DNA of 60,385 nucleotides, filler included, from Sphacelaria rigidula (Eukaryota): assembly GCA_964200075.2 (NCBI GenBank). It is 7 parts of 7 records of this genome, joined end to end, with 100 filler letters (N's around TTAATTAATTAA, not from the genome) between each part and the next. Parts side by side here need not be neighbours in the genome. Positions count along the whole stretch, not along the records: positions 8,643 to 17,184 come from CAXNAA020010848.1; 6 more parts are not named here. One strand, 5' to 3'. The notes beneath the pieces were generated by a model. That model searched no databases, was not told the origin of the DNA, and saw only the letters and a list, made by a program, of their open reading frames with translations. Shown here piece after piece: positions 876-57,400 of the stretch (positions are counted from its first letter, which is position 1; each line of letters opens with the position of its first letter). The translations under genes were made by a program, and so were the position numbers.

Positions 876-1636
876 GGGTGTCCGTGTAACTTAATATCTT
901 GTGTGAAGCCTACGATGAGTAAGACCCACGATATAGTGACTCACCTGACGTGTAGTGTTATGCTTGGGTACACGTGTTCCACCGCACTTGGCGTGTTGGA
1001 AGACATGCGTATACTCGTGATGGGGCTGGAGCTGGGCGTATCGCTTCCCCACCCTCCTCACTCTCTCCATCAGCCACACCAACCAGTTGCGCTGTAATAA
1101 TAAACTATCTTACCTACTCTCCATGGGTGCAACCAACATGCTAGTGTCTTCCGGTACTGTTCGACGCCACAAGACACATGACTTCACGTAGGGACGCAAA
1201 ACAGCAGTCTTCGGACCGAGCATCTGAGAGAGATAAGTAGGAAGGTAGATGATTTCTCCACCCCTCTCTCAAATGCTTGGTCCGAAGACTGCTGTTCTGC
1301 GTCCCTACGTGAAGCCATGTGTCTTGTGGCGTCGAACCGTGCCGGTAGATACTACTATGTTGGTTGGTTTATGCACCCGTGGAGAGTTCGTGAGATGGTT
1401 TATTATTGCAGCGCGACTAGCTGGTGTGGCTGATGGAGAGAGTGAGGGAGGTGGGGAAGCGAAGCGCCCAGCTCCAGCCCCATCACGAGTATACGTGTGT
1501 CTTCCAACACGTCAAGTGCAGTGGAACACACTTACGCGTGTACCTAATCATAACACCACACGTCAGGTGAGTCACTACGTCGTAAGTCCTACTCATCGTG
1601 GACTTCACACAAGATTTTCAGTCACGCAAACAACCC
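876..1636. mobile_element. ~760-bp imperfect foldback (MITE-like palindrome)
   Basis: Arm ~876-1232 is the reverse complement of arm ~1264-1636, with a ~30-nt spacer. Example: gggacgcaaaacagcagtcttcggaccgagcat versus atgcttggtccgaagactgctgttctgcgtccc. Ends GGG...CCC; no clean TSD seen. Confidence 0.85.
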
Positions 1637-1644
1637 AAGGCATT

Positions 1645-2550
1645 TTGTGCGCGATGTTGCGGTGATTCTGAACGCTAGAACACTTTCTGGTGCCAATTCT
1701 AAAGGGCAACGATATGAAATCCGTGCAGAGGCAGGGGTAGATCTTTAGATCTTGCTATCCTTGTTGTTCACGTCGGCCCCCTGTTGGTCGAGGCTGGCAC
1801 CAAGACGGGAAATAACCGCCAGTTGAGGTTCCCCATATGTTAGAGGCAGATTACCTTGGGTTTTATACGCCGTGTTGAGTAAGACGCGGCCGCACAACGT
1901 AACCAAAGAGTGCCTTCTGCCGAGGACCACTGTGGACCTGTTCGGGCAGGGGGCGATGTCTCCTCCTTCACAGTGCCAGACTTAGCGTGGCGGTTACCAC
2001 GACGGTCTGAGAATGACAGGGGCGGTTGCTGTAGTTTTCTTATACCAGAATCAACCGGATATTATTACGTGAAGATGTTTATCAATCTCTGACAGGCGCA
2101 TGACCGCCCTTTTGCGGGTTTCTCACTTGGCTCTAGATTAGGACAGGGTGCGAGGTGCAATTAAAAAAAAAATCACGGATAGATCGCGGGTATTCTACAA
2201 GTAGCCCTACCCAGGCGCGGTTCGCATCGTACAGTCAGTACTACAGTACTCGTTGTACTGCCACTAGGAGCACACATTGTCAACTTCGTTGGGTATTGTC
2301 GTGGCGGGATACATGTCGTGTAATAAACGCTCCCTCTTTCCGCAGCGATATGCATCCTTTCCTATCCGGCTACCAAATGCGCGATGACTTGTCTTAGCGC
2401 CAGGTATCCGTGCTGATTTGGCGATCTATCTTCCAAGGACGTTTGCCCCCTCTAGTTTCAGTATATTTTAGTCATTGGAATATGACTGTCTCCAATTGAC
2501 GCCGGGGATGATGACCTATAATCGCTGTAAAATGCTTTCATAATATTGCG
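1645..2550 (-). repeat. Dispersed ~900-bp repeat family B with ankyrin-like peptide remnants
   Basis: Colinear with 26760-27670 on another contig (both give VISRLGASL..DVNNKDSKI). Remnant motifs MHIAAERGSV and GADVNNKD; reading frames are broken. Confidence 0.75.
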
Positions 2551-4409
2551 TAGGAACAACACTGCCGATACTCGTACTGTACCCTGTTTGATTTTGTCGG
2601 TGGAGTTACAATATATGCCGCCTTTAGCGCGCATATCAGCGTAGAGTCGTGGCCCTGATATGAAATCCGAGCTAGTTTTGAGAGAATAAAGCAGAGGAAA
2701 AATGCTCAGAGACGAGAACAAACTGATTGCGAGTGAACGACGAAAATGCAATCTACTTGAAAAAAGGGCGTTGCTAGACCAATACCCGCAGTACTCACAT
2801 CTACAGTAAAAAACGCGCGTCCATGGAACCTGGAGACAATTTGCTACGAGACGCCAGATGCTTTTTGGCGCGTCTCCCCAAATCAGAGCGCGCAATCCTC
2901 CGCGGACACAAAAATGGGCGCGGAAGTCGCATCTACAAAACATGTGCAGCAGTATGTATTTCACCTCAACAATGCACTTGGTGGGTTTTTCCGAACCCGT
3001 CGCTAACAACTCCGTGGCTGGCGTTTGTTGTTGCGAATTCCTCCACCGTACCCCTTCCCTTACCCTTTAGTCACCCCCCTTCCCCCCCCTCCGTAAAAAA
3101 GCAGTGCTCAGTCTCGAAAGGGATGCGTGGTCAATGGTCAGACGACTAAGGCAAGCAACAAATGAGTACGCCCCCCCCTCCGTAAAAAAGCACCCTTTTC
3201 ACTGTTGGCTCTGATGCCAAGCGGAACCAGAAAGGGTATTTGTTGCATGGATATGTGTTTTCGTAGCGCAAATAGTACCGAGCTGCGTAGGGATTGGGCT
3301 ATTTGGAGCTCCCTCGGCGCCCACTGCTGGTGCTGGATCGGACCTTGTCTCTGTTACAGCTTTTTTATCGTGCGTTTGCACATGTGGCAGTCATGAAGAC
3401 CGACTTGGTGTCCGTTGCGCAAAGGGGCATCGAACCCAAGACTTTGAGTTGACGACCGCGGCAGCTTTGAACCCCTGTATTTTTGTGGTCCAGAGTACTC
3501 CTGCGAAGCTCATCATAACTACAGCATAATACACCCTGGACAATACATTACATTGTCAAAAGATGTACTGCGTACAGTATGAGATCTATTGTCTATTGCA
3601 ATGTAGACGCAAGAGTCGATACTGTACGCAGTATACTTTTTGGCAATGTAATCTGTTGTCCAGGGTGTGCAGCATGACCGGACGGCAGCCGCGGTTTCTT
3701 GTGCCAACGTAAGAACAGGAGACGGAGAATCAACAGTTGCCGCCTCCTCTTGTTACCGTCTAGCGTCACAGCTGCCGATAAACTCATCATCATTGTGCCA
3801 GACCAACACCTTGGGGCACGTAATCAACGGTGGGGGAAAATATTTTCCTTCAGTATTTCATGTCGTGTAGCTCGCGATTCTGAGGTTTTGAGCGGAACGG
3901 GTACAGTACCCCATTTGGGGGCAAAACGCTTGAAATGAAACAAAAAGAGTGAGGAAAAATAGAAGAGATAGAGAACACAACAACAGACTAAGAAGATAAA
4001 AAAGGCAGCACAAGAGAAAAAAAAAAATAAGGGAAAATGATTCAGTGACCGGCCTCCATCACATGTGTTCTGTGGAAAAGGTCTTGCGCATAAAATACAT
4101 TCATACCTAGCGGTAGAATCAAATTTCCGTGGGAAAAGATTGCGGCTCATATACTACGACCGCACTATTTTGGGAATGAACCCTCTAATCCGTGGAACCT
4201 ACGGCGAGGCGCCACACTCCTCCGGCATACACCGGTAGGAAATAACACATACATGAAGAGAAAGATGGGGAAAGGGAGAGCAGAGAAGGAGACTCCAGAA
4301 GGGATGAAGCCTGAAGGAATCAAGGTGACGGAGCAGGTACAGATACACCAGGGGGCACCGCAAAACCACCGACCAAGGACAAAATCAGCAGCCGATAGGG
4401 GCAGACTGG

Positions 4410-4910
4410 ATTTTTGGATTCCAAGATAACCATTTGTCCGTGTTCTTCGCCGCAGTGACCCAGTCGAATGTATCACCGACCTCCACACCGTAGACGAACC
4501 ATTTCTGTCGCGCTCCTTTGTGCGGAATAGCCCCTAGTGCACGTAGGTTCTCCTGAAGGTATTCCTCCCATTAATGGGGGGGGGGGGGGGGGGGGGGGCA
4601 GCTCCCATAGGCCCTTGTGCGGTTAACCGTCCGTTCACGATGCGTTTGGGAAGGCATGTTGCCTTCTGCAGCAACAGGGGCTCCCGCGAACCAGAGTTGA
4701 CGTTTGCGGGTGATCGTCCGGATATGGTCGCAGTTGGTCATCTGGAGCAGCGCTCTGTACGAAAGAGTGCTATAGCCATTTTGATATTTCCTGCGGAATC
4801 CAACCACTCGCAGCAATAGCTTGTGATGGGGAGCGCGTAGACTGTCGAAGTCCTCAGAACGCAACGTCCATGTGGCACATTTGTACAGCTGAGCTTCCAC
4901 CAGGGTTCTG
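4410..4910 (-). mobile_element. 3' fragment of an RTE-clade non-LTR retrotransposon (LINE), degenerate
   Basis: Translation LYKCATWTLRSEDFDSLRAPHHKLLLRVVGFRRK...RKRQLWFAG, then WEEYLQENLRALGAIP...DWVTAAKN. Matches the post-RT C-terminal region of RTE LINEs (LLYG.E/A.W ... R.R.L.W.G). 5'-truncated. Confidence 0.8.
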
Positions 4911-6017
4911 TGTAGCGACCGATGCCATCACTTTGGAATATATATCCTTCATTTCGTAGCGGTAGAGATTACCGCATGCTGTTCTCAATGCTTGGCGAGC
5001 GCGAGAACTGCGTCGACTGAACCTGTGGGGTCTTTATAACGATCGGTGCTGCTATTTGGAAGAGACCCTCGTTTCATAGCCGTGGGACACGCAGCTGTAT
5101 AACCCGTTCGGCATCTTTGGACTTCCAAAGGGAGCACCATTTTGTGCTTTCGGGCGGCTTCCACAGGAGTTGTTTTTGAGCATGAGGCAGACAAGCAAGT
5201 TGACGTTTGTTCATACCCCTACAAGCGTGAAGATCCTTCTCTTTTCCACTGGTGTAGTAAGCCTTTTGTGTAGGAATACCTCGGTTACTTGCCACAAGTA
5301 ATTTGTCTTGCAGAAGTCTTTGGGTTTAGTGTCTGCAGTGCACTGACATGCGGAGCTTGAAATGAGTTTGATGGTTCCAAGTGCTTGACAGCGTGGGCAG
5401 CATTTCTGGCGCAGATTCGAGCCTTGCCAACGCACGATTTGCTTCAGGCACCTTCTGCACCCCCCTCTCCCCACCCCTATGCCCCGTGGACTTTGGGTTT
5501 GCCTTGAGTTGGGGATTGCGCGTTCCCGTATCTAACGTTTTGACCTTGAAAAAGTGCACTTGTGTTCGTGCACAGCGCCAATGCGAGTGTTTATTATTGA
5601 TTCTCCGAGGGGAAAAAAGGACGACCATGCGTACACAAGGGCGACATTCTGTGTTTTTTTTCAATCGTGAAACGAACCTCCATGTCGTGCAACATAACCG
5701 TAAGTGCCTACAAACCCGGAGCTAGACCGACCGTACATGAGGCAACTGAAGGTACACCCTTCTCAGGCCAGGCGAATGGCAGATGTATGCCCCCTACCCC
5801 CGGTATTCAACGTGCCAACGTCGTTGTAGGGGCGGTAATCGCATCACAGTCAGCCGCATGGATTGGTCCGTTATGCGTGAGTTGGGAGCGCTTCCTGTAT
5901 TTGCAACCTTGATACCCCCTGGTTCAGCAACGTACAGCAAAATGCAGATATGCCATCACGCCGTGTGATGTAACTCTTTCCTTGGCCATGTGGTTTTGGT
6001 TACACGCAACGCGACAG

Positions 6018-8542: not shown

Positions 8543-8642
8543 NNNNNNNNNNNNNNNNNNNNNNNNNNNNNNNNNNNNNNNNNNNNTTAATTAATTAANN
8601 NNNNNNNNNNNNNNNNNNNNNNNNNNNNNNNNNNNNNNNNNN
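8543..8642. other. Artificial contig spacer
   Basis: 44 N + TTAATTAATTAA (stops in all six frames) + 44 N. Confidence 0.98.
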
Positions 8643-10798
8643 GTGTTTCATCCTCAACAAAAAGTACCATCCTCAACATAGATGATTCGCTGTTAATAGA
8701 GAAATGCGACTTCAGCCCCATTTTAGTGTTGAACCCCAAAATTTAAAATCGGCTGTTAGTAGTGGCAACTTCTCCAAACGAGCGACGAACACCTTCTAGT
8801 CCTTCCAAATAACACGTACGAAATTCAGTGAGATCCGATATTTTTGGGGCTGTCTGGAAATTAGATATATCACCATAAGTAAACCTGGGTGCACGAAAGA
8901 TGGGGAAAGTGCGCTAGAATCCTCTCGGAAGGCGAGGCAAATCTTTGCGAGGAGGCGCAATCCACCAAAAAGATATTTTTCGCAGATTTTAGGTAAGGCC
9001 GCGTGTTTTAGCTCGTCGTCATTTTTCGACCGAAAAAGTGCGGTGGAAAACAAGAATGCCGATTTGATGTCGTGATTCAGCCATCAACATAAATAACGAT
9101 AAACGTTGAAATCCCAACTTATCAGATTGGAGTGCTATGATCCATCGCACATTTTCGATTGAAAAAAATGTTCCAAGACACGTCCTAATGGCCACTGCTA
9201 CGGCGTGTGCCCAACTCGTTCGGGCACAGGACATGGAGGGGTACAAATATGCGCGGAAATAGGGCACCATATCTTCCCAACATTCAGTAGAAGCGAAGGA
9301 GTGTCCCACCCCCCTCGCTCCTGGCCAATGGGGGTTACGCGGTCACTTGAAGCAGTAGATGGGCCGCAATCTGTTCCCACGGCTTTCTTTTTTCTACAAT
9401 CGAGTATTTGTGGTTTGGTTTCCGCCCAAGATCTTGTCCACCGAAGCCATGTTGTAGGAGAGGCCGGCCAATTCCCTTTTGATTGTCCTTGCTTTCTTCC
9501 TCTTCCCTTCTGGTCTGCTCTCTGTTTTACCTCTTCTGTTTTTGTCACTTTTCTTCAGGAAGTATTTCAGTTTTGTTGTTGTCTCGGAAACATCCACCAC
9601 GTGGATGGATATAGTGACCACGGCTGGATCGCTGGGGATCAGTCAACGTGCGTCAGTCAACTCGATAAAATCAATTCAAGCAGCAGCCGGTGTTATTCAA
9701 CATCAGTGCAGTGGTGCTGCGCTCAGTGCTACGGCTGCTCCTCAATCAACAGTATTTCGGAGAAGCATACTTAGTTCAGAGACCACGTGGGATGCAAAAA
9801 TCAAGCATATCCCCATCTTAACCCACGCGCCGGACCTTTGTCCTCTCACTGGAACCTTGTTTGTATCCTTTTTTGGCCGAAGTTTGAGGGTGGCCCTTAC
9901 CCTTCCCATGGTCTGTGGCCAGCGAAATGTGCTCTGCTGCGATTTTTCGCCGCTGGAAAAAACAGCCGTCAGCGACACTTCACATTTGCCAGTGGAGTCG
10001 AGGACTACCTTAATTTGGTCATAAAATGTGTACCTGTGGCCAAAAAAAGGTACAGAAGTGAACGGAATTGGCTTGTGAAAAGTCCTCGAAAGCAAGAAAC
10101 TCTCCGCCCACATGGACGTGCGTTCGGGTTACCTTCTCAGCAAAGTGGAACGTCTAGCGAGGCTCTTGCTCAATCTCTGGTCACGGCTCACGCGATACTT
10201 ATAACCAGCCTGAAATGAGCACCGTGAATGGTACCCCTCTTCATCTTTTGGAGTTAAGCTATGTCCAGCAAGCTATTATATCTGCTCCTGGTTCAAACAC
10301 TGAACCGACGACATTTGAACAAAAATAATGACATACAAGGGCAAGTTTTTTCAACGGTCGCACTCTCAAGCCTCTCCCGCCCTCGTGGTGGGCGTCCCAT
10401 CGACCAGCTGCCAATGGACATGACAATGGAAGCTTCGCAACTTTTGTATCTACAACACGACAAAAAAAGTGGAGATCACGCACGACAATTTGTTCGGGCA
10501 TATCGCTGTCGTCACACCCGCAGAGACATGCACAACCCTCCAGTTTCAATCCAATCCGACCCACACCCGCTCCTAAAATTTACAGTATGGTAGCAGATTC
10601 CCAGGCCCACAGAACACCTCGAACATCAAACGGGGACCAACACACTCTGGAGAGCGCATCCGTCGTGCATCGCGGTTATACCCCTTGCCCCCCCCTCCCC
10701 CAAAAGCACCCGAGCCTGGCCTAGTCGGTGGAAACCTGGCGTGCTTCGTCCAGCCTTCGTAGGGATACAAGGTCAATGGTCATATGACCACGGCATGC

Positions 10799-11082
10799 GG
10801 ACCGACGCCCGGATCGGTAGGGTGACACGTGTACAGAGTCGAGCTGGGGGACATTGTAGGAGGTTTGGTCGGTGCGGGATGTACTCATCCCAAGTCCGAC
10901 ACTACCTGGGTGGGGGGGGCACTCCCACCTTGATGCCTACCCATACATTCGCTAGACATGTCTACCCTCGGGTGGACATGTCTGACGGGTGGAGCGACTT
11001 GAAGCGCTGCATGAAACTAGAAATAGCGAAGTGAATGGTGAAAGGTTCCTTCCTGTTCCCTGGGGACGCAAAAAAGAAAAAG
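10799..11082 (+). mobile_element. 284-bp structured, A-tailed retroposon-like insertion with 10-bp TSD, inserted into a family A copy
   Basis: CACGGCATGC is repeated at 10789-10798 and 11083-11092. The tail is aaaaaagaaaaag. Removing the insert restores the family A text seen uninterrupted at ~39160-39210 (cgcggcatgcaatatcatgagtacgcc). Confidence 0.75.
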
Positions 11083-11470
11083 CACGGCATGCAATATCAT
11101 GAGTACACCGCTCCCCCCCCAAGCGCCCCAAACTCATCTCTCTCCATATCCCCTGGACGACGCGTGATAAATCAGCTCACAACGGAGGAAGCCAAAACGG
11201 AATCCCTTCCCTCCTCGCCCCTACCCAGCTCATCGTATCGGTTACATTTCCATACAGGAAAAGTCTTCATCCTTGCGAGAACAATCGATGGGCTCAACAA
11301 CGAAGGCGTTCGTCACAGAAAGGAATAGGCACACGAGCAACACAAAGAAACAGGGTTGATATCACATCTCCCGCCGTAGCGGATGAATGCCTCTTTCACT
11401 CCTCCAAGAAGCACGACACAAATGAGCGATAAAACTACATTCGGCGACGTGGGAAGCGCTGCGGTCAATT

Positions 11471-11628
11471 CTATCGTTGTGCTCTCAGAGCCGCGCCCTC
11501 TCTTCGAAGCTCTTTCACCACGGCTGCCAGTGCCTCTGGGTTGACCCCGCTCTCCACCAGTTCCAGCAGGATTGAAAGCGTTCGCCGATCGAGCCCTGTG
11601 TTGAGCATGGTTGAGATTTCATGCAATG
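11471..11628 (-). CDS. MZT1: Mitotic-spindle organizing protein 1 (MOZART1/GIP1), terminal coding exon; first exon not found
   Basis: Acceptor tgtgcag, then phase-1 translation LHEISTMLNTGLDRRTLSILLELVESGVNPEALAAVVKELRREGAALRAQR*. This is the MOZART1 signature (EIS..LNTGLD..TL.....L.E.G.NPEAL..V.KELR). Confidence 0.93.
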
Positions 11629-11819
11629 CTGCACAGACAGAACGGGGGGTGCGTCAACATTGTCCAAAGAAGGAAAAGGTGTTCGTTGAGAACGGGTGCA
11701 ACAAACTGGGTGCCCTAGAAAGCTTACTTGTACAAGCCTGCGAAGGAGACCAAGGACGAGAAACACGGATACAACCGGGGATGCCTGTAGACTGGCATTG
11801 GAGACAAAGATACGTATAG

Positions 11820-12070
11820 AGGCATACAGTGTATAACCCGCGGTCGTCTCTGGAAGTGGCGATACCAGGGAGTGGAGCAACTCATTCAAGGTTGTCATCC
11901 AGTCGCAAGATTATCAGTACGCTTTGGTCCGAACAATCTTCGCAGGATGCAGCTCACTCGTCCTGCAACTCGCCGACCACGTCACGGCGCTTCGCGCTTG
12001 GTGTTGCCAGCCTGGCCCGGTGGAAATCCGGCGTGTTCCGTGCCGGCTTTGCGGGGATGCGAGGTGAACG
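11820..12070 (-). repeat. Interspersed repeat family A copy (in the MZT1 intron)
   Basis: Similar to 1-215 (reverse complement) and to 38900-39210. Confidence 0.8.
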
Positions 12071-12882
12071 GTATTTACGGCGGTGTATAGTTAACAGAAG
12101 TAAATGTATAGGAAAACAAATCTGCACACAAGTGGGGGGCCCCCAAAAAACACTTGTTTTGTAGCGCTACCAAAAGCTTCAAGCCCGCTGTAGACCCCAT
12201 TATATTTATATCACCGCAACACAGACGTAACTTGGATACAGAAAGTGTACCTTTCGTCAGGTGCCGGTCGCATGTGCAGAAAGCAAACACAAGTTGCGGT
12301 AGCGCACGTCGAAAATGAGCACTACGTTTTCACGGGGGAATACTTCTTCCGAAACCATTTTTTAGCATCAAACCGTAGAACCAGTTTAAGTAGACAGCCA
12401 TGAATCAGGCGGTTCCACCTATCCATTCAGATTTTGAATCAGCGTCCGCAATCTCGAGATATGGATATTTGAAGAGGGGCACCTCGGGTAAACGAGCACT
12501 TTATTCGGCCGAAGGGTAACATGGATATTTAGGCATAACTTACTACGAAAATAATTTTTCCCGTTTTGATTTTTTCTGCGTGAACCCCCATCCATACGGT
12601 TCTTTTAAGCTATCGATTATATTCCAATCACAATTGACTATTCTACAGGAAAATACTCGTTTAAAAGTCTACCCCAAGCCAGCCCAAGGGTAACGTCCAA
12701 ACTCATGGATACTAGAGTAAACGTCTCATTCTGGTTTTTGCTGCACATGCACAAGAGCACACCGCTTCTTTTGAGCTACTGCACATATCTTCTACACCAG
12801 AAAACACCATCCCACAGCATTGTGAATACGGACGTGTGTGTCTTTCTTCAAAATCAGTTTTTTGGTCGATCGGCTGCTAAGC

Positions 12883-17184: not shown

Positions 17185-17284
17185 NNNNNNNNNNNNNNNN
17201 NNNNNNNNNNNNNNNNNNNNNNNNNNNNTTAATTAATTAANNNNNNNNNNNNNNNNNNNNNNNNNNNNNNNNNNNNNNNNNNNN
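17185..17284. other. Artificial contig spacer
   Basis: 44 N + TTAATTAATTAA + 44 N. Confidence 0.98.
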
Positions 17285-20461: not shown

Positions 20462-23400
20462 TCAAGCTTCATCACTATTCCACGCCGTGTCAGGATTGCG
20501 TAAGACAGCTTTGTCGATGTCGCCTCGGTCGTGTCGTTGTAGGCACCAAGATACTCGGCGTGCCATTGGCACCTCAGTGTAGTAGTCGTCGTCGAGGCGG
20601 ATCTTAAGGGGTCCCGGATCATCGAGAAAACAAATGAAGTATGCATTGTCCACTGCAAGATCAATCAAATGAACTTTTCCCAGTCATCACCGCGAATCGG
20701 TTGCCTTATACCAAAAATACGCGCCTTTGGGCGAGCGCTTATTACAAAACAAAATCAAGTATTGCGCACGAGAAACAAGACTATAACCGGCGATGACGAA
20801 TCGCGCGAAGTGCTCCCGTGGCAGCTCACGAGTCGCTGCTCCTTTGCGCATGGACCTATCGCGGTTGTTCAACAAACGGTGTAGTACAGCATCTCCTACC
20901 CAATACAGAAGTATTTCTCTCCGAAAGTGGCGCAAATCAATTTCCCGTTCCCAGGTAACACGCATAATACCTTTCCAGTGTGTCTGGTACATAAGCGCTA
21001 TTTTACCTCCTCGACCTCGGACTAATTGATGGTCCGAAATGCGATCTACCACCACTCGCCCAAGAGAGTCATTGGCATCTTCAACCGCCAAGTGATACGG
21101 CGGGGCTTTGGTCGCATAGTTGGTCAACACGTACTGACTGAGATTCATTGGCAATTGTTTAAAGCATGTCGGTTGCATCATGTGGGAGCAGACACGGTGT
21201 ACACCTCAGCATCGAAACTCGATCTTTGGGTTTAGTGCCAGGTTCATCCGTGGGAAAATCCGTGTACAAAGGTTTCTCGCCTACCGGACTACTGTCAGGT
21301 GCGGCATCACAGGGCCCAACCGCCAAGATGTTCCAAGGGCCAGTCCAATTCAAGGATAGTTTCGACTTCGACACCTTATCCAACGAAGACTTATTGGAGC
21401 TAGCCCCCTGAGTTACCACCTTCCCATCATTTTACACCCATGCCCATTGATCTATTTTCCACACCGGATGGTTGTTGACTGCATCATCCAACACAGTGTT
21501 GACCCTCGCTTATTTCGCTGTATTGACTTGGTTTTGCTCGCGTACCACCTCATACGCAAGCAAGACGAAGACGATTACTGACAGAAATATGGTACTCCGC
21601 GATATCTCGATCCGAACTTTGATGGCCCCCGCAAGGTTTCCTTCCCAACACCGTCAATGAAAACTTGGGCATACGACCAAAATGAACTTCATTGGGAGCC
21701 AAGCCCGTTGCGGTATTGACTGAATTGTTGCCGTTCATCTGAACAAGGAGCAAACGCAAGTCCCAGTCCGTTTTTCGTTCTTTGGTTACTGTTGCCAGCC
21801 TTTGAGCCATCGTATCGCTCACTCGTTCAGTCCCACCGTATGTGGACGGATGGTATGAGCTAGTAAAAATACGATGGGCACCCAGGAATGTTCTGATCGC
21901 AGCAGAAAGTTTGCTGGCGAAATGCGGGCCGTTATCGGACAACAATCACTTGGGTACACCCCATTGAGGAATGTATGTGTACACAAGGACGTTGGCTGTG
22001 CCTGCCGCACTGAAGTTGGCTTCCGAAACAGCATGCATCACCGCGTGTCGACTGAACCGATCCGTGAACAACAGAATGTACTTGTTACCACTGTCATAGA
22101 GAGGCAACGGACCAAAATAGTCTCATGAGACTACTTGACCAGGCCCGTTGGGGAGTGGCATGAAAGTAAGTGGTCATCGAACCGTTTGGCGCGAATGTTT
22201 TTCACGCCTGACACAGAAAACAACGCCTCATCCACCAACGTATACACTGATCTATACGAGCCCACCAATAAAAAAGCTCAAACATCTGAGAGGTCCGAGC
22301 AGCTTCCAGATGTGTCGATGCTTGTAAATGACATTCATGGGGAACCCATGGACGCAGGAGCTTCGGCGCATGAATTCGTGCGGCATCATCACCTAACAAA
22401 CAGGCATGTTTACCGGTAGGTTTCTCCACACGAAGGGGGGCTGTGAGCCGGCGAACAAAACAAACGACGCCATCATAATCCGCATAAAGCATACCTCTCG
22501 GGATAGTTTAATACCTTTATCCTGCGTGTGGGCTTTATGGTTCCCAACGGGCAAGAGGAATTTAGTTGCTGTAAAAAGAGAGGGGCAGCCTTTGGATAGA
22601 TAATGCATAGCCGCTCTTCAAGCAAGTTCAGCTTCTTGTCTCCTGGCCCAATTGACGCGGGAGAAAAGGGTCAAACGTTCCTCAAATACGTTATCCAACG
22701 GTTCGTCCAAAATAAAGGGGTCCGTGTCACGGCGGTGTTGACTCGAATCAAGGGTATTTGGATCATGGGCGGGGGGATCAGTCAGTGTATCTGCAAGCGA
22801 AATATTGTCTCCGATTCCTACGTCGACTAGCGCATCGGATGATGAGGCATCAGTGGGAACACCATCACCGGAGAAGTAGGGCAAAGCCGAGGCTTCGGCT
22901 ATGGGAAGCAGGGGTGCCGTGGATGGGATCGATCATCTGGGGGCCTTGAGCGTTGGTGGTTGAGGGGGCGCAAGGAAAGTACCGGGCAACGGGATGGGGT
23001 CGGGATGGGAAGGTCCGGGCCAGAGGCCGCCAGGGTGGCGGCTGTATCGGCGGCCCGTCGCCCCCGAGCTCTACTCGAAATGGGATCTCGAACTTGAACC
23101 GCGAGGACGAAGTCAGTACAAGACGGATATACATCTGCACTACAAACCATTCGATGACCAGTTGCATGGACCTGATCATACTCACGCGGGTTTGTACTGG
23201 CTCTACTCCAAATTGAACACAACGATTGTGGTGGCATACTGCCTAGTACAGAAACGTGAGCTGTAGTCGTCAGCCCATCGATGCCAAGTGCTGAGTCGTG
23301 GTTCAGTGAGAGTGGTGTGCAGATTCCGCTATGATCGTATCTGCCAATGAAATATACAACGTCTTCGGCGGGATCCGTGATGCGTCCCAAGGCGGAGCTG

Positions 23401-25660
23401 TCCATTGGTTGGGCCGGGACGGGCAAGCGAAACAGAAACTTAGCGTTTGCGTTTTGAGGTCCTGCTCGATACTTGAGCGTGAAGTGGTAAAAAGACAGGA
23501 TTTCAAACCAGCGTTGAATCTGGGCGTTGTGTTCCGCCATTTTGACGAGGTTTTCCAAAGACTTATGATCTTTATAAATCACGAACGGAGTGCCATACAA
23601 GTACTGACGGAGACATCTCACTCCCCAAACAATCGTGTTGGCCTCTTGCTCCATGACCGACCAGTTTTGGTTGTTTGGGTATGTGGTTCGACTCAAACGT
23701 ACAATGGGGCAAATATCAGCATCTAGTTGTTCCTGTTCCAACGTGCGGCCAAACCCGATTTTGGTGGAATCCGTGTGAAGTCGGAACGGACGTGAACCAT
23801 TTCCAGCGGCCGACCAGTCTGGGATACCCAAGATTGGTGGTCGCGAAAGTGTGTCAAGCAGTTGACGTACTCTTTTCTCCATTCCCGACGTGAGCGCGAA
23901 TTTCACTCCTTTTTTGAGAAGGGAGGTGAGAGGTTCAAGGATTTGGGCTAGGCTCGGCAAACCTTGTCGGTAGCAGCTCAAACCGCCGAGCAAGGAGCTC
24001 AGTTGAGATGTATCCCGTGGCATGGGCACATCTGTAAGTGCGGCAACCTTGTTGAGGTTTGGGCTACGACCTTCAGAAGTGATACAGTGGCTCAGGAATT
24101 TGATGCTAGTCGCTCCAACGCGGGATTTGGACGAGGCAAGTTTCAAATTGTGTTCTTCGAAGCGAGCGAAGAATGACGCCAAGTGCTCGACATGTTCGGA
24201 AGGGGTGCTTCCGTGTATCACCGCATCATCGAGGTACATATGGCCCTTGGACAATCCATCAGTCACACGAAAGATTACACGTTGAAACGCCCCGGGGGCG
24301 CCGACGGCACCTTGTGGTGTTACCAACCATTCGTACAGGCTTGACGGTGTACAAACTGCCGTCAGTTCTCTAGATTGCGGGTCCATCACAAGTTGGTGGT
24401 AGCCGGACTGGATGTCAAACTTCGAAAATACTTCACCGTCGCCAAGAGAGTCAATGATTTTATCCATGCGGGAAAGAGGTAGACGTGCGATTTTGGTGAC
24501 GGCGTTCAATCGTTGGTAATTGACTGTCAGTATGATCTTACCGTTCTTCTTCCGGACGATAACAAGCGGCGAGGCCCACGGGGATGTGGAGTGCCGTAAT
24601 AAACCGGCGGACAAGTATCCGTCGAGGATTACCTGAATTCTATCCGCCAAGAGGGGGTTTGTACGGTACGGACGCGTAGCGATAGGTGGCGTGCCATCAG
24701 GGATTCTCATCTTGAACGGTGTAGTGGTGCAGCGGCCTAGATCTAGGGGCGAATTGAAGAACCGTTCAGAATATCTCAATAAAATGGAGCGCAGCCTATC
24801 GATTGCCGTGGGAGTCCAACCCTCACCAGATAGATCAAAAGTAATGTATCGCAAATGTGGGGGATATCGTTCCATACACGTTGAAAACTAACACGTTGCT
24901 CTGGAGATTATCTATCTAGTAATGCAGTGGGGGGGGGGGGGGTCAGGTGCGTTAGACGCATCGTCCAGAATCATGGGGCAAGCCTTGTCTAACGGCGGAG
25001 AGTCCGCGTCGATCGAGGCGTCTGGTGACGTTCTCCATTCGGTCGCCAGGCACACGTTTGACAAGTCCGTCCGTAGGAGGGGTGCCTGAGCAAAACCAGA
25101 CAACTGGCCAGGAAGTATATCGAAACATGAGGACGTGAGAGGGATGGATTTGTCTACCTTCCTGAGTGAATACTTCGGTCTGGTCAAAGGCGCCGACATC
25201 ATCAGCGGACTGTTTGAGGTTGATGAGTGGGCCAAGCATTGTCCAGTGAGGGCAGAGGATCCGTTCCGTCTCACAAGGTTCACATGTATGAGTTGGGGTT
25301 CAGGGGACAAGGAGGCTACGTTTTCGCCAACATAGTACAGTCGGAAAGCATCACCTGTTTGTGTTAGATCGTCGACATAGGCATGAGCCCCCGATGCAGT
25401 TTCGTGATATCCTAATCTCGATCTGTCAGTCTTGGGATCGTGCAAAACAGGTGTGTCCGACGTGTATGTATGAGTAGAAAACCGTAGCCAACTATAACGC
25501 CCCAGTAAAACATCAACCGACATGTAACCATTGGGCACAATAAGTGTCAACACGGATAATCGAGCAGTCATACCCGTGCCATCGAAATATTTCACACTAC
25601 GTCTCACTAATAGATCAACCGTAAGTAACAGGGGATTCTGTAAAATGACGTTGACCAATA
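20462..25660 (-). mobile_element. Ty3/Gypsy LTR retrotransposon pol region (protease region-RT-RNase H-integrase-chromodomain), decayed; 5' end truncated by the contig edge
   Basis: RT motifs SPWASPLVIVRKKNG, FSKFDIQSGYHQ, PQGAVGAPGAFQR, YLDD. RNase H region FRLHTD...EANTIVWGV...DHKSL. Integrase zinc-finger remnant (YWW...RRCFLCQA), core LSDNGPHF...YHPSTYGGTERV, and GPY/F-like WTGPW. The RT-RH-INT order is diagnostic of Gypsy. The integrase is broken by stops and frameshifts. Confidence 0.95.
22899..24875 (-). pseudogene. Reverse transcriptase-RNase H open frame of the Gypsy element (658 aa, motifs eroded)
   Basis: The frame is open and YLDD is intact, but VNYQRLN replaces the usual VDYR.LN and NANAKFLFR replaces N..AD.LSR (conserved RNase H Asp lost). 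Confidence 0.85.
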
Positions 25661-25825
25661 AAATGAGTTTTGAGGAGGCTAGTCAGAATGCGACAAAAAC
25701 TCGAGGGAAGTACCGTCCGCAAGTGCCTTCGATCATTTTCGGGGGGGGGGGGGGGGGCCACTTTTTTTGTTTGCCTGGGGGGTTTGCTTCCGGAACTTTG
25801 GGGCCGAGGGGGGGCAATTGGTCAA

Positions 25826-25925
25826 NNNNNNNNNNNNNNNNNNNNNNNNNNNNNNNNNNNNNNNNNNNNTTAATTAATTAANNNNNNNNNNNNNNNNNNN
25901 NNNNNNNNNNNNNNNNNNNNNNNNN
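25826..25925. other. Artificial contig spacer
   Basis: 44 N + TTAATTAATTAA + 44 N. Confidence 0.98.
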
Positions 25926-34466: not shown

Positions 34467-34566
34467 NNNNNNNNNNNNNNNNNNNNNNNNNNNNNNNNNN
34501 NNNNNNNNNNTTAATTAATTAANNNNNNNNNNNNNNNNNNNNNNNNNNNNNNNNNNNNNNNNNNNN
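34467..34566. other. Artificial contig spacer
   Basis: 44 N + TTAATTAATTAA + 44 N. Confidence 0.98.
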
Positions 34567-38899: not shown

Positions 38900-39210
38900 G
38901 ATTGTGAAACACCCATGAGGTGGTATGTAACCCGTGGCTGTCTCTGGAAGTGATGACACCAGAAAATGAAGCAACTCATTGTAGGCTGTCATCCGAATGC
39001 AAGATGATCAGTACGCCCCGGGCCGAGTAATCGTAGCAGGGTGCAGGTCACCCTTCACGCGACTCGCTGACCACATCACGGCGCTTCGCGCTTGGTGATT
39101 GATGGCGAGCGTGGTCCGGCGAAAACCCGACGTGCTCCGTCCCGACTTTGTAGGGATTCAAGGTCAGTGGTCTCGCGGCCGCGGCATGCAATATCATGAG
39201 TACGCCCTCA
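38900..39210 (-). repeat. Interspersed repeat family A copy (uninterrupted)
   Basis: Similar to 11820-12070, to 10715-10798 joined with 11093-11120, and to 1-215 (reverse complement). Confidence 0.8.
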
Positions 39211-42740: not shown

Positions 42741-43012
42741 GTGTGGGAATCTTTGATTTGGTGATTCAAACCAGCAACGATGATTCGTCCGACGCTTGTA
42801 AAGTTTGACCTCCACACAAAACAAAAAAATATACCTGTGATATACGAGTGAGCTTTTGTTTTGTCTGTCAATGCTGGTCGCCATTATGTGTCACACAATA
42901 ACTCCACCCGCCCCCCTTTTCCTTCCACCCGAGGAAATAGCATACTCTTTTTGCTATCATCTTATTCATCTCTTCATGTCTGTCTTCTCCAATCCCCTCC
43001 CTCCCTGCCCCC

Positions 43013-43058
<46 letters not shown>

Positions 43059-43106: not shown

Positions 43107-43206
43107 NNNNNNNNNNNNNNNNNNNNNNNNNNNNNNNNNNNNNNNNNNNNTTAATTAATTAANNNNNNNNNNNNNNNNNNNNNNNNNNNNNNNNNNNNNN
43201 NNNNNN
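43107..43206. other. Artificial contig spacer
   Basis: 44 N + TTAATTAATTAA + 44 N. Confidence 0.98.
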
Positions 43207-51746: not shown

Positions 51747-51846
51747 NNNNNNNNNNNNNNNNNNNNNNNNNNNNNNNNNNNNNNNNNNNNTTAATTAATT
51801 AANNNNNNNNNNNNNNNNNNNNNNNNNNNNNNNNNNNNNNNNNNNN
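51747..51846. other. Artificial contig spacer
   Basis: 44 N + TTAATTAATTAA + 44 N. Confidence 0.98.
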
Positions 51847-54402: not shown

Positions 54403-57400
54403 CACTTTTCACGATTGCTCCCCCCTAAAAAGTGCACGGTTCGGGGTGGGAAAATGTTCAAGTAAATCGAAATGGAAAAAGTCGAGCACAACGAGAAGCT
54501 GGGAATTCCCGCGCTTGGGTTCGTTCTCGCCGATGTCGCCAGTATGATGCGCTTCATGCAGCCTGAACCCAAACATCAGGCGCTGCATAGCCATTTTTTC
54601 GTGACACTTTTGGGCTTGTTTGAGGGGGGGGGGGGGGGGGGCCTTGGTNNNNNNNNNNCGTACACTGGTTTTTGTTTTTTGTTTGGGTTGTTTGGGTGGG
54701 GGTGGGGGGGGGGGGGGGGGGGGGCTTCGTAGAAAGTGTATTTCGAAGATTCGGTGTGGATACGAAGTTTTCAATTCTCCGGGCCTCTCATCCCCGAAAA
54801 AATCCATCCCCAATTTGTAAAATCCCGTGTCATGAGTCATGCGATACTACAGTGTCCGTGCAATCCCTTTGTTTCACCCTCAAGTGGCCGCGGGATGATA
54901 CCTCTGCTGGTCTGTTGTAGTGTACACTTCCAAATTATCTTGTAGTCTTGCTCCCCCCGCGCTGTACTTGTTTGCCCTCCGGCAACCCCGACAAAATGCG
55001 GACAGATGCGGAACCCGGTGAGCTGAAGATAAATCAAGGGGGAAAAACAGCATTGGAACGAGAAACAAGACCACAAAAAGGAAAACAAAAATTGCGCCTA
55101 CATCACAATACTTTCCGCGGCACACACAATTCCTTCGCACTCTCGTGCTACAAAAAAAAAAAATACTTTTCAGCATCAGAACGATACCTACTACATATCC
55201 TCACACGACAGAAAGGTTCAAAGTTTCACCAACCCGCACTCAACCTGCTGAGCACTCCCCCGCTTCCACAAACAACGAAAATCTAGGTAAAGGAGCTGAC
55301 AACATGCTAATCCCGCATGGGCTACTGCTACCGCAAACTCGCGTTTATTGGCGATTCCCAGAGAAACACCGCTGTCACTGCTATTCCCACCCAGAGTTTT
55401 GGATTCCGTCCAACAGGACCCTCCACCGAATAGTCGGTCCTGTCCCCAACTTACAACCTACCCACACATACATCCCACTGGATGGACTACATACAGTAGG
55501 GTGTGCTACACAACACAAAGTCTAACGACCCATGGAAATTAAACAGCCATCACTCATATGAGTCGCATCGTCGACAGGATCCCACCACGGTACAGAAACA
55601 CAACGCACGCGGAACAACGCATAGCGAGTATGCTACTGTCATTTTAGAAACGTGAATGTTGTCGAGCAGCAGCAGCAGCAGCAGCAGTAGCAGCTGTTAA
55701 TTTCGGCTCGACAATTTTTCAACGTTCCGGGACAAGACATCAAGAGACAAGAGGGGTATACGCACAAAACTCCCAACCCTTGCAATATCACGCGTGCATT
55801 TCCCTTTGAACCAACCCGTACATACTTCGACAATCATGTATTCGATATCCCGTGTGCGGGGCTGTCCAACTCTCACTTCGCGCAGATATCTTTCCATTTT
55901 TTGCACCCTGGTTGCCCCCCTTCTGGGGCGACAGCGCGGAGGATGGAGAAGCGGATCGATGTGAGGCAAAGTCCACATGTTTTCCGAAGTCACGGCTTTA
56001 GTCGAGCGCGAGTCTGAAACAACAGGCTACGCGACCGCATCCAGCTGAGCCGTGAACGCGGAGATGGTCATCGAAGAGCCATCTGCAATTCTGGTTAGAC
56101 ACTGCAACATGAGCAATAAAACTCCAGGCTTGCGGTCACCCCTTTTGCACGTTCGTACCAGCCAGCGGCTACATGCTACGCCTGTTGTGAGTGGACGAGT
56201 GCCTCTCTTGTGCTGACCCATGCAAGCCGCGATGACCCCCACCAACCGCAGGCCGTGAACCTCCTTCGCCCTCACAGGCTGTCATAGTGAAGGAAGCTTC
56301 AGAAGCCCAGCAAATATCCTACTGCGTACCCTCCCTCAAAACGGGTGTACCTCCCCCCCCCCCCCCCCCCCCCCCCCCCCACCCCCACCCCACAACACCC
56401 CCCCCCACCCCCTCCCCCCCTCCCACACGGANNNNNNNNNNCCCCACCGGCGGTCATAGTGGAGGAAGCTTCAGAAGCCCCGCAAAAAACCTCCCCCGTC
56501 CCCCCCCCCCAAACGGGGGTCCCCCCCCCCCCCCCCCCCCGCCCCCCCGACCGCGACCTTAGGCCTGGCTCACAATGAGTTTTTCCTATAATCGAGGGAG
56601 TTGGTTATGGCCTGCAGTCGGTAGAGGCCCTCGGGAGTCTACACACTGGCACATCCGAACCTTGGACGCCAGTATCACAACAACAAACGGATTTTTAGCA
56701 AAACTTCGACGATAAAAAAAAACGAGCGACTGCAGTACACGGTACCCACATTGATAGCAGATGACAAATGTAATATAAAAATAAATGTATTAACTACATA
56801 TAACACTCGGCAAAAAAGAGAACAAAAAAGGAAAAGCATGCGCTACGACCAATGACCAATGATCGTCCGTGACAAACCACGAAGACACCCAAGGGCGTCA
56901 ACAGATGGAGACAATAGATACAACTTGCATGAATACACTCGAGTAGTTTCCCTACCCAAGAGGTGAAATTATCCATCGTGCCGATCAAAATCAGCGATGG
57001 CATAGTAGCGGTCGCCTCATAGTCAAGCACTTGATGGAGGAATTCGACACCGTCTCGAGTGTTTAAAAAAAGAAAGGAAAACGCGTTTCGGTCGCGTCCC
57101 TCGCCGACATAGATCTCTGTATACAGACCCGCGACAGCGAATGCTGTCGAGCTGAACGGTCGGGCCCCTGAGATGATTGGTGGATCGATTCTCGCCCGCC
57201 AACATTAACTCATCCGCCACGAATACGGTTTGCTGGATGCACCCAAGGCCGATGAAAGGAAGCACTAGTTGCACTAAAACTAGTGTCAAGGGCGCGGGGG
57301 GGGAGGGGAGAGGGGGGAGGGAGAGAGACAGAGTAAACTGGCATCGACGCCGGGCGAAAACCAAGTACCTAACACGAGAAAAAAAACATGCTACTGCCAT

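Follow-up and report, generated by a model that had tools for sequence, protein, structure and literature searches.

A probable SINE-like retroposon nested in a more abundant repeat of Sphacelaria rigidula, and the chance resemblance of its three-way junction to a hammerhead ribozyme

The closest known systems to the element that we describe here are short non-autonomous retroposons that depend on LINEs, and SINEs in general. For instance, RTEX-N1_Ec32 of the brown alga Ectocarpus is presented as a LINE-dependent element of ~600 bp, for which the 5' origin is given as undeterminable and the label as 'possibly a SINE'; its 3' end matches autonomous RTE-X elements (PMC12477816). Ribozymes have also been found in retroelements, and the described carriers are retrozymes, Penelope-like elements, repeats of Schistosoma and R2 (PMC4918200, PMC6155905, PMC3414825). 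The retrozymes of plants are described as having two long terminal repeats (LTRs) of 300-400 bp, both of which contain a bona fide hammerhead of type III, together with a primer binding site for tRNA-Met, a polypurine tract, 4-bp duplications and circles of 600-1000 nt (PMC4918200). For the repeats of Nematostella, the same source reports large, LINE-like duplications of 15 bp (PMC4918200). Conserved and active type I hammerheads, which are usually arranged in tandem, are reported for the non-LTR retrozymes of animals and, in Schistosoma, for the Sm-alpha repeats (PMC7229834, PMC6155905). Lastly, R2 and its internally deleted derivatives carry an HDV-like ribozyme that cuts their own 5' end (PMC3414825, PMC6155905).

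Here we analyse an element of 284 bp with an A-rich 3' end (10799-11082, + strand) that lies in a window of 60,385 nucleotides from Sphacelaria rigidula, where the window is the whole stretch of DNA that was analysed. We conclude, with a probability of roughly 78%, that the element is a fixed copy of a short, non-coding and non-autonomous retroposon that is SINE-like in the broad sense and depends on a LINE. It has the features that define a broad-sense SINE or LINE-dependent retroposon, which are a short non-coding unit, a duplication, an A-rich tail, many dispersed copies and a fixed 5' end. With RTEX-N1_Ec32, as far as that element is described in the source cited above, it shares being short, non-coding, multi-copy, dispersed and reverse-transcribed without a recognisable polymerase III head. 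The unit differs in that it is only ~270 bp long, to which an A-rich tail is added, and is flanked by a duplication of 10 bp, whereas RTEX-N1_Ec32 has ~600 bp and a 3' end that matches RTE-X elements.

When comparing the element to the described carriers of ribozymes, we find that it has none of their defining features. Like the plant retrozymes it is non-autonomous and non-coding, and its RNA has a stable fold; however, it consists of a single unit, ends in an A tail, is flanked by a 10-bp duplication and lacks a valid hammerhead. The first-pass annotation had called the element a retrozyme-like candidate, and this likeness was lost on inspection: the element lacks long terminal repeats, a second ribozyme copy and a 4-bp duplication, and neither a pair of LTRs each with a hammerhead nor the primer binding site and polypurine tract of plant retrozymes was found. 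The animal non-LTR retrozymes and the Sm-alpha repeats, which are SINE-like, resemble the element as short retroposed units with stable RNA folds, but our element is a solitary unit with a core that lacks both the canonical sequence and conservation. We found no tandem array in or around the element, no further copy of it in the window and no match to a hammerhead. As there is one motif per unit and neither terminal repeats nor a tandem array, we see no route to a circle.

The comparison to R2-type elements is based on the 5' end. Self-cleavage from a longer transcript would explain how a fixed 5' end arises without a recognised promoter. The HDV-like ribozyme at the 5' end of non-LTR elements is a nested double pseudoknot (P1, P1.1, P2, P3 and P4) that starts from the first nucleotide and has its catalytic C in J4/2. 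A permissive HDV-like descriptor gave 25 parameter solutions near the 5' end of the element (with a 6-bp P1 and a 4-bp P2), but it also fits 56 of 200 shuffled sequences, and the HDV-type families of Rfam gave no match at E<=10 in 2301 bases around the element or in 306 bases of the element alone.

The insertion can be described by the following features, in which X1 is one of four public runs (X1, X3, X8 and X9) and depths are summed contig depths, which are not equal to copy numbers.

10732-10788, no strand: host repeat, left part (depth 12264 at 10740-10783 in X1, compared to 86.1 further left)
10789-10798, no strand: target-site duplication, left copy, CACGGCATGC, with 100% identity to 11083-11092 and part of the host repeat
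10799-11069, + strand: retroposon body, a non-coding SINE-like unit (from the ends of paralogous contigs and depth)
11070-11082, + strand: A-rich tail, aaaaaagaaaaag (from reading the sequence)
11083-11092, no strand: target-site duplication, right copy (from a direct-repeat search and reading the sequence)
11093-11135, no strand: host repeat, right part, ending in a C run (depth 7231 at 11092-11135 in X1)

The clean, A-tailed insertion with a 10-bp target-site duplication that the first-pass annotation had reported is confirmed, as the direct repeat CACGGCATGC is identical at 10 of 10 positions in its two copies (10789-10798 and 11083-11092) and the tail follows at 11070-11082. Furthermore, the empty site is found in paralogs of the host repeat. 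A paralog within the window (39175-39206) carries the target once, reading ..cgcggcatgc followed directly by aatatcatgagtac, and has no insert. In the public runs, contigs of the host repeat join position 10798 directly to the sequence that is otherwise seen from 11093 (36 contigs in X1, 25 in X3, 27 in X8 and 197 in X9). The consensus of the loose ends behind 10798 is AAGATCATGAGTACACCCC..., which matches the window from 11093 onward, and among the joints listed for contigs spanning the insertion site are those that skip 287-301 bases. The paralogous empty sites and the perfect duplication thus show an insertion of 284 bp with a 10-bp duplication. The element was inserted into a pre-existing and far more abundant repeat, and this nested insertion dates the families of the element and of the host repeat relative to each other. 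The 10-bp repeat could alternatively be split into a 6-bp duplication and atgc as bases of the element, since one paralog of the element aligns already from 10795. By eye, neither end of the element has terminal inverted repeats, and the only direct repeats in the region of the element are the 10-bp duplication and a 9-nt repeat within a hairpin.

To describe the family, we used one alignment of assembled contigs from the four public runs onto positions 10300-11600 (1301 bp). The variant table derived from it covers differences that reach at least 10% of depth; all statements on variants below therefore apply among the variants listed, and linkage between positions is unreadable from the table. 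Between 182 and 2360 contigs per run aligned on the 1301-bp stretch, of which most are <95% and many <90% alike. Other copies of the element in the runs have unlike flanks; their 5' end is fixed (10795-10805), and on the 3' side they end at the tail. About seven distinct paralogous contigs lose their similarity at 10795-10805 and continue upstream with 68-3084 nt of unlike sequence. For instance, a contig of 1338 nt has 1256 nt of its own upstream flank and is seen in three runs, and in X8 as a contig of 3166 nt. Further contigs bounded at the 5' end have lengths of 335 nt (196 nt upstream), 2850 nt (~2700 nt upstream) and 205 nt (68 nt upstream), and additional ones have 208-631 nt upstream. 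Other paralogous contigs lose similarity at 11066-11080 and run on for 419-587 nt downstream; these variable ends of the alignments suggest that the tails differ between copies. The summed depth in X1, which is not a copy number, is 981-5392 within the element, compared to 86.1 and 354.7 in the two flanking contigs. We conclude that the element is a member of a multi-copy family of diverged and dispersed copies.

Within the window, no second copy of the element was found (blastn, word size 7). Metagenome contigs scanned with a 21-mer (11013-11033) and a 20-mer (10807-10826) gave 0 matches for each. Among prokaryotic genome contigs, the 20-mer had two actinobacterial matches, which we attribute to chance, as the identity covers exactly those 20 bases and nothing beyond.

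The family bears on the best-surviving alternative, in which the element derives from a LINE, either as a 5'-truncated 3' end (3' UTR) or as a copy that has lost its interior and retains only the two ends of its parent. An A-rich tail and a duplication of 10 bp are the traces left by the machinery of LINEs, a head of the polymerase III type was not recognised, and internally deleted, non-autonomous derivatives of R2 are on record (PMC3414825). In addition, the depth in X1 is higher at the ends (5392 and 3566 at 10784-10871, ~1924-2026 at 11004-11091) than in the middle (~981-1007), which would be expected if the ends were shared with a longer parent; however, contig depths are not copy numbers. 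The ~7 paralogous contigs start at a fixed position (10795-10805) rather than at random truncation points, none of the contigs listed extends the similarity leftward into a longer element, and the window has no LINE-type ORF. The fixed 5' end, together with an end at the A-rich tail, is more readily explained by a unit-length retroposon than by LINE tails that were truncated at random. This 5' end is supported but unproven, since contigs break at the borders of repeats by construction. Altogether, we consider an origin as a LINE derivative unlikely, although it is the alternative to which we give the most weight.

For the preferred reading of a LINE-dependent, SINE-like retroposon, we looked at its possible promoter and partner. 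No tRNA was detected in 10000-12000 (ARAGORN), and Rfam gave no match to tRNA, 7SL or 5S RNA at E<=10 in 2301 bases or in 306 bases. Using consensus sequences of the A box and B box, the best A-box match (one mismatch) is misplaced at 11024, and for the B box the best match (two mismatches) lies at 10799, so that their arrangement is unusable. The absence of tRNA-type A and B boxes noted earlier thus holds. The unit contains no run of four T. A SINE in the strict sense has a tRNA, 7SL or 5S head with an internal polymerase III promoter, and these searches recovered no such head; a promoter of an unrecognised type may be present.

To search for a partner, 81 ORFs of at least 110 aa in the window were compared to Pfam; one had domains and 80 had no match. 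The one with domains (22899-24887, - strand, 662 aa) matches RVT_1 (1.5e-23) and RT_RNaseH (7.4e-24) and is of the LTR-retrotransposon type; an adjoining ORF (24912-25682, - strand, 256 aa) has no Pfam match. Hence the sole reverse transcriptase among these ORFs is of the LTR type, and neither a LINE-type ORF nor a partner LINE was found in the window. The mechanism that we propose is as follows. A unit-length RNA would be turned into DNA by a reverse transcriptase that acts in trans and most likely comes from a LINE, with target-primed reverse transcription starting on the A-rich tail. As no tRNA-type boxes and no known small-RNA head were recognised, the RNA would be transcribed from an unrecognised internal promoter or by read-through. 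The folded body may contribute to the stability of the RNA or to its recognition by the protein of the partner.

We next consider the fold. The + strand RNA (10799-11072) has a minimum free energy (MFE) of -114.0 kcal/mol, compared to a mean of -98.8 for shuffled sequences (z -3.09, matched by 1 of 200 shuffles). The - strand reaches z -1.63, and 14 of 200 shuffles fold equally well. The fold consists of these parts:

10868-10900, + strand: hairpin gtcgg..gggatg / catccc..ccgac (MFE fold)
10908-10930, + strand: G-run / C-rich hairpin of 9 bp (MFE fold; given as 10909-10929 in the first-pass annotation)
10935-10953, + strand: outer helix of the three-way junction, 5' strand, which pairs with 11025-11046 (pair 10952-11026 with probability 0.94)
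10954-10983, + strand: 13-bp hairpin with the loop CUCG (inverted-repeat search and pair probabilities)
10989-11012, + strand: second hairpin of the junction, previously taken as stem II (MFE fold)
11025-11046, + strand: outer helix of the three-way junction, 3' strand, which pairs with 10935-10953 (MFE fold)

The two hairpins at 10868-10900 and 10909-10929 and the three-way junction had been predicted by the first-pass annotation, and all of them are present in the MFE fold. A further proposed stem, accga/tcggt (10801-10818), is absent from the fold of the window copy and is seen only in that of the majority-variant version. The general description of a retroposon-type, highly structured element agrees with the duplication, the tail and the z-score of the fold, and the element furthermore belongs to a multi-copy family.

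The variants allow a comparison of the fold across the family. Of the 32 variants listed inside the element, 11 are at unpaired and 21 at paired positions. Taken singly, the latter keep the pair in 10 cases and break it in 11, which is about the neutral expectation given neutral transitions and does not by itself demonstrate selection on the fold. The majority of the family differs from the window copy at 8 positions. Four of these are paired (10846, 10940, 10976 and 11012), and all four keep or improve the pair; for instance, 11012 is T>C in 82-100% of depth, which turns the closing G-U of the hairpin 10989-11012 into G-C. With the 8 family-majority bases, the MFE is -119.7 kcal/mol, compared to -114.0 kcal/mol for the window copy. 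In the 13-bp hairpin, pairing is kept by 5 of 7 variants, and 10955 G>A and 10982 C>T could compensate for each other if they occur in the same copies. Taken together, these comparisons weakly support that the master copies have a functional fold.

The most variable spot of the family is the tip of the first hairpin (10878-10887), where substitutions and small insertions occur. The variable hairpin (gggatgtactcatccc, 10865-10888) is 75% complementary over 24 nt to the end of the host repeat at 11099-11122 (atgagtacacc...cccc), which could be due to chance or to a captured fragment. The palindrome GACATGTC is present in both arms of the 13-bp hairpin (10954-10983), so that pairing between two RNA or two DNA molecules is possible.

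A fold of this kind would also be expected if the copies were retropseudogenes of a lineage-specific, structured cellular non-coding RNA that was repeatedly retroposed, with no self-propagating family. In line with this, the compact fold is specific to the + strand, the 5' end is fixed, the majority version folds better than the window copy and no repeat-type promoter boxes were found. However, Rfam returned no family match at E<=10, no conserved source gene was identified, and the divergence among contigs (most <95% and many <90% alike) resembles that of subfamilies with a history of amplification, which is more in line with a transposing family than with one source gene. We thus regard retropseudogenes as improbable, and somewhat more so than a LINE derivative.

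Still less probable is that the master copies carry an uncatalogued RNA module for self-processing or for recruiting proteins, of which the window copy is a decayed example. The thought arises because no promoter head is recognisable, while the 5' end is fixed and the majority version folds better. Such a module could be, for example, a non-canonical self-cleaving motif, located within the first 80 nt or the three-way junction, that trims the unit from read-through transcripts.

Lastly, we analysed the resemblance to a type III hammerhead that the first-pass annotation had seen in the three-way junction. The letters are where they had been read, namely CTGACGG (10982-10988), GAAA (11013-11016) and ctag (10952-10955 and 11017-11020), and the order of stem, hairpin, CTGACGG, hairpin, GAAA and stem is literally present. 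We find that their likeness to a hammerhead is due to chance, and that the natural pairing of the three-way junction in which they lie buries the would-be core. The searches with Rfam, the geometry, the shuffled sequences and the variants of the family all bear on this result.

None of the ribozyme families of Rfam, the hammerhead covariance models included, matched at E<=10, whether the 2301 bases or only the 306 bases of the element were searched, and none matched at gathering score in the whole window. A strict hammerhead descriptor had 0 sites in the window. We then used a relaxed descriptor that permits one core mismatch and up to two extra nucleotides and does not require U at 16.1. It detected two sites in the real window, which are the candidate and an unrelated site near 11270 on the - strand. 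In dinucleotide-shuffled windows, at least one site was found in 11 of 40 (mean 0.325). The first-pass annotation had itself raised the possibility of a chance resemblance, and these equal matches bear out its caution. The unrelated site (~11200-11270, - strand) lies just outside the element and shows how easily such matches arise.

The pairing in the predicted fold is at odds with a hammerhead. The proposed cleavage-site C10957 (C17) is paired with G10980 (probability 1.0), C3 (10982) with G10955 (0.98) and U4 (10983) with A10954 (0.65). The pairing of ctag with ctag (10952-10955 with 11017-11020), which had been proposed as stem III, has a probability of ~0, as c-t-a belongs to the outer helix. 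A hammerhead arrangement requires the 13-bp hairpin to give up two of its base pairs, which leaves two extra nucleotides between stem I and C3, and it also requires the 4-bp stem III in place of the stabler outer helix. The GAAA is present; three helices that abut with no extra nucleotides are not. A hammerhead-type fold with a free core has -33.2 kcal/mol, compared to -45.6 kcal/mol for the best fold, and the penalty is thus 12.4 kcal/mol.

The family does not supply an intact core either. The conserved box C3-U4-G5-A6-N7-G8-A9 reads CTGACGG in the window, with G at position 9, and since 10988 has no variant among those listed in the four runs, the family keeps this G. The cleavage triplet N-U16.1-H17 is GAC, and at 10956 the listed variants include only A>G and never T. 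At C3 (10982), T accounts for 26%, 26%, 44% and 48% of depth, and at A6 (10985), C accounts for 17%, 17%, 27% and 18% (X1, X3, X8 and X9, respectively). In the proposed stem III, 10952-10955 is variable at 4 of 4 positions and 11017-11020 is without change among the variants listed. Thus, neither A9 nor U16.1 is restored among the listed variants, which is largely the outcome that the first-pass annotation had named as speaking against a hammerhead. The majority C at 11012 yields the classical CGAAAC and a G-C pair that closes stem II; it improves the ordinary fold equally.

The reading of the element as a decayed copy, whose master had an active type III hammerhead for self-processing or for circular RNA as in retrozymes, has the motif order and the CGAAAC in its favour, but with the missing Rfam match, the kept G at A9, the absent U16.1, the variable C3 and A6, the paired core, the two extra nucleotides, the shuffled matches and a solitary motif without terminal repeats or tandem array against it, we consider it the least credible of all and very improbable.

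The hammerhead motif order with two core deviations is thus a chance find in about one quarter of 60-kb windows when repeats are GC-balanced and rich in stems. As chance matches are this frequent, a covariance model or a family consensus is needed before such hammerhead calls are believed. This useful lesson is a negative one, on trusting relaxed hammerhead matches in stem-rich repeats. The retroposon itself is a record, from an alga-like genome, of an uncatalogued family of SINE-like elements in which no polymerase III head is recognisable; as an ordinary mobile element, it has little significance beyond repeat annotation.

The host repeat and the remainder of the window gave some further observations. 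The host repeat (10680-10798 and 11093-11135) has a depth ~140x that of the left flanking contig in X1, a ratio of contig depths and not of copy numbers, and is far more abundant than the element. It had no match in Rfam (2301 bases at E<=10, whole window at gathering score). Other copies of it in the window are located at 39117-39206 (76%), 12009-12072 (73.5%) and 3119-3159. Its core reads ...gtagggat.caaggtcaatggtc...ggcatgcaa.atcatgagtac, and it ends in a C run, then aaaagca. A short version at 3080-3192 is flanked by a 22-nt direct repeat, ccccccccTCCGTAAAAAAGCA. Paired 44-base blocks of N recur every ~8640 bases (8543-8642, 17185-17284, 25826-25925, 34467-34566, 43107-43206 and 51747-51846); this regularity stems from masking or scaffolding and is not biological. 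Homopolymer C tracts are found at 43008-43057 (50 bases) and 56353-56427 (~72 bases); as C runs also end the host repeat, such tracts may be a feature of the repeats of this genome.
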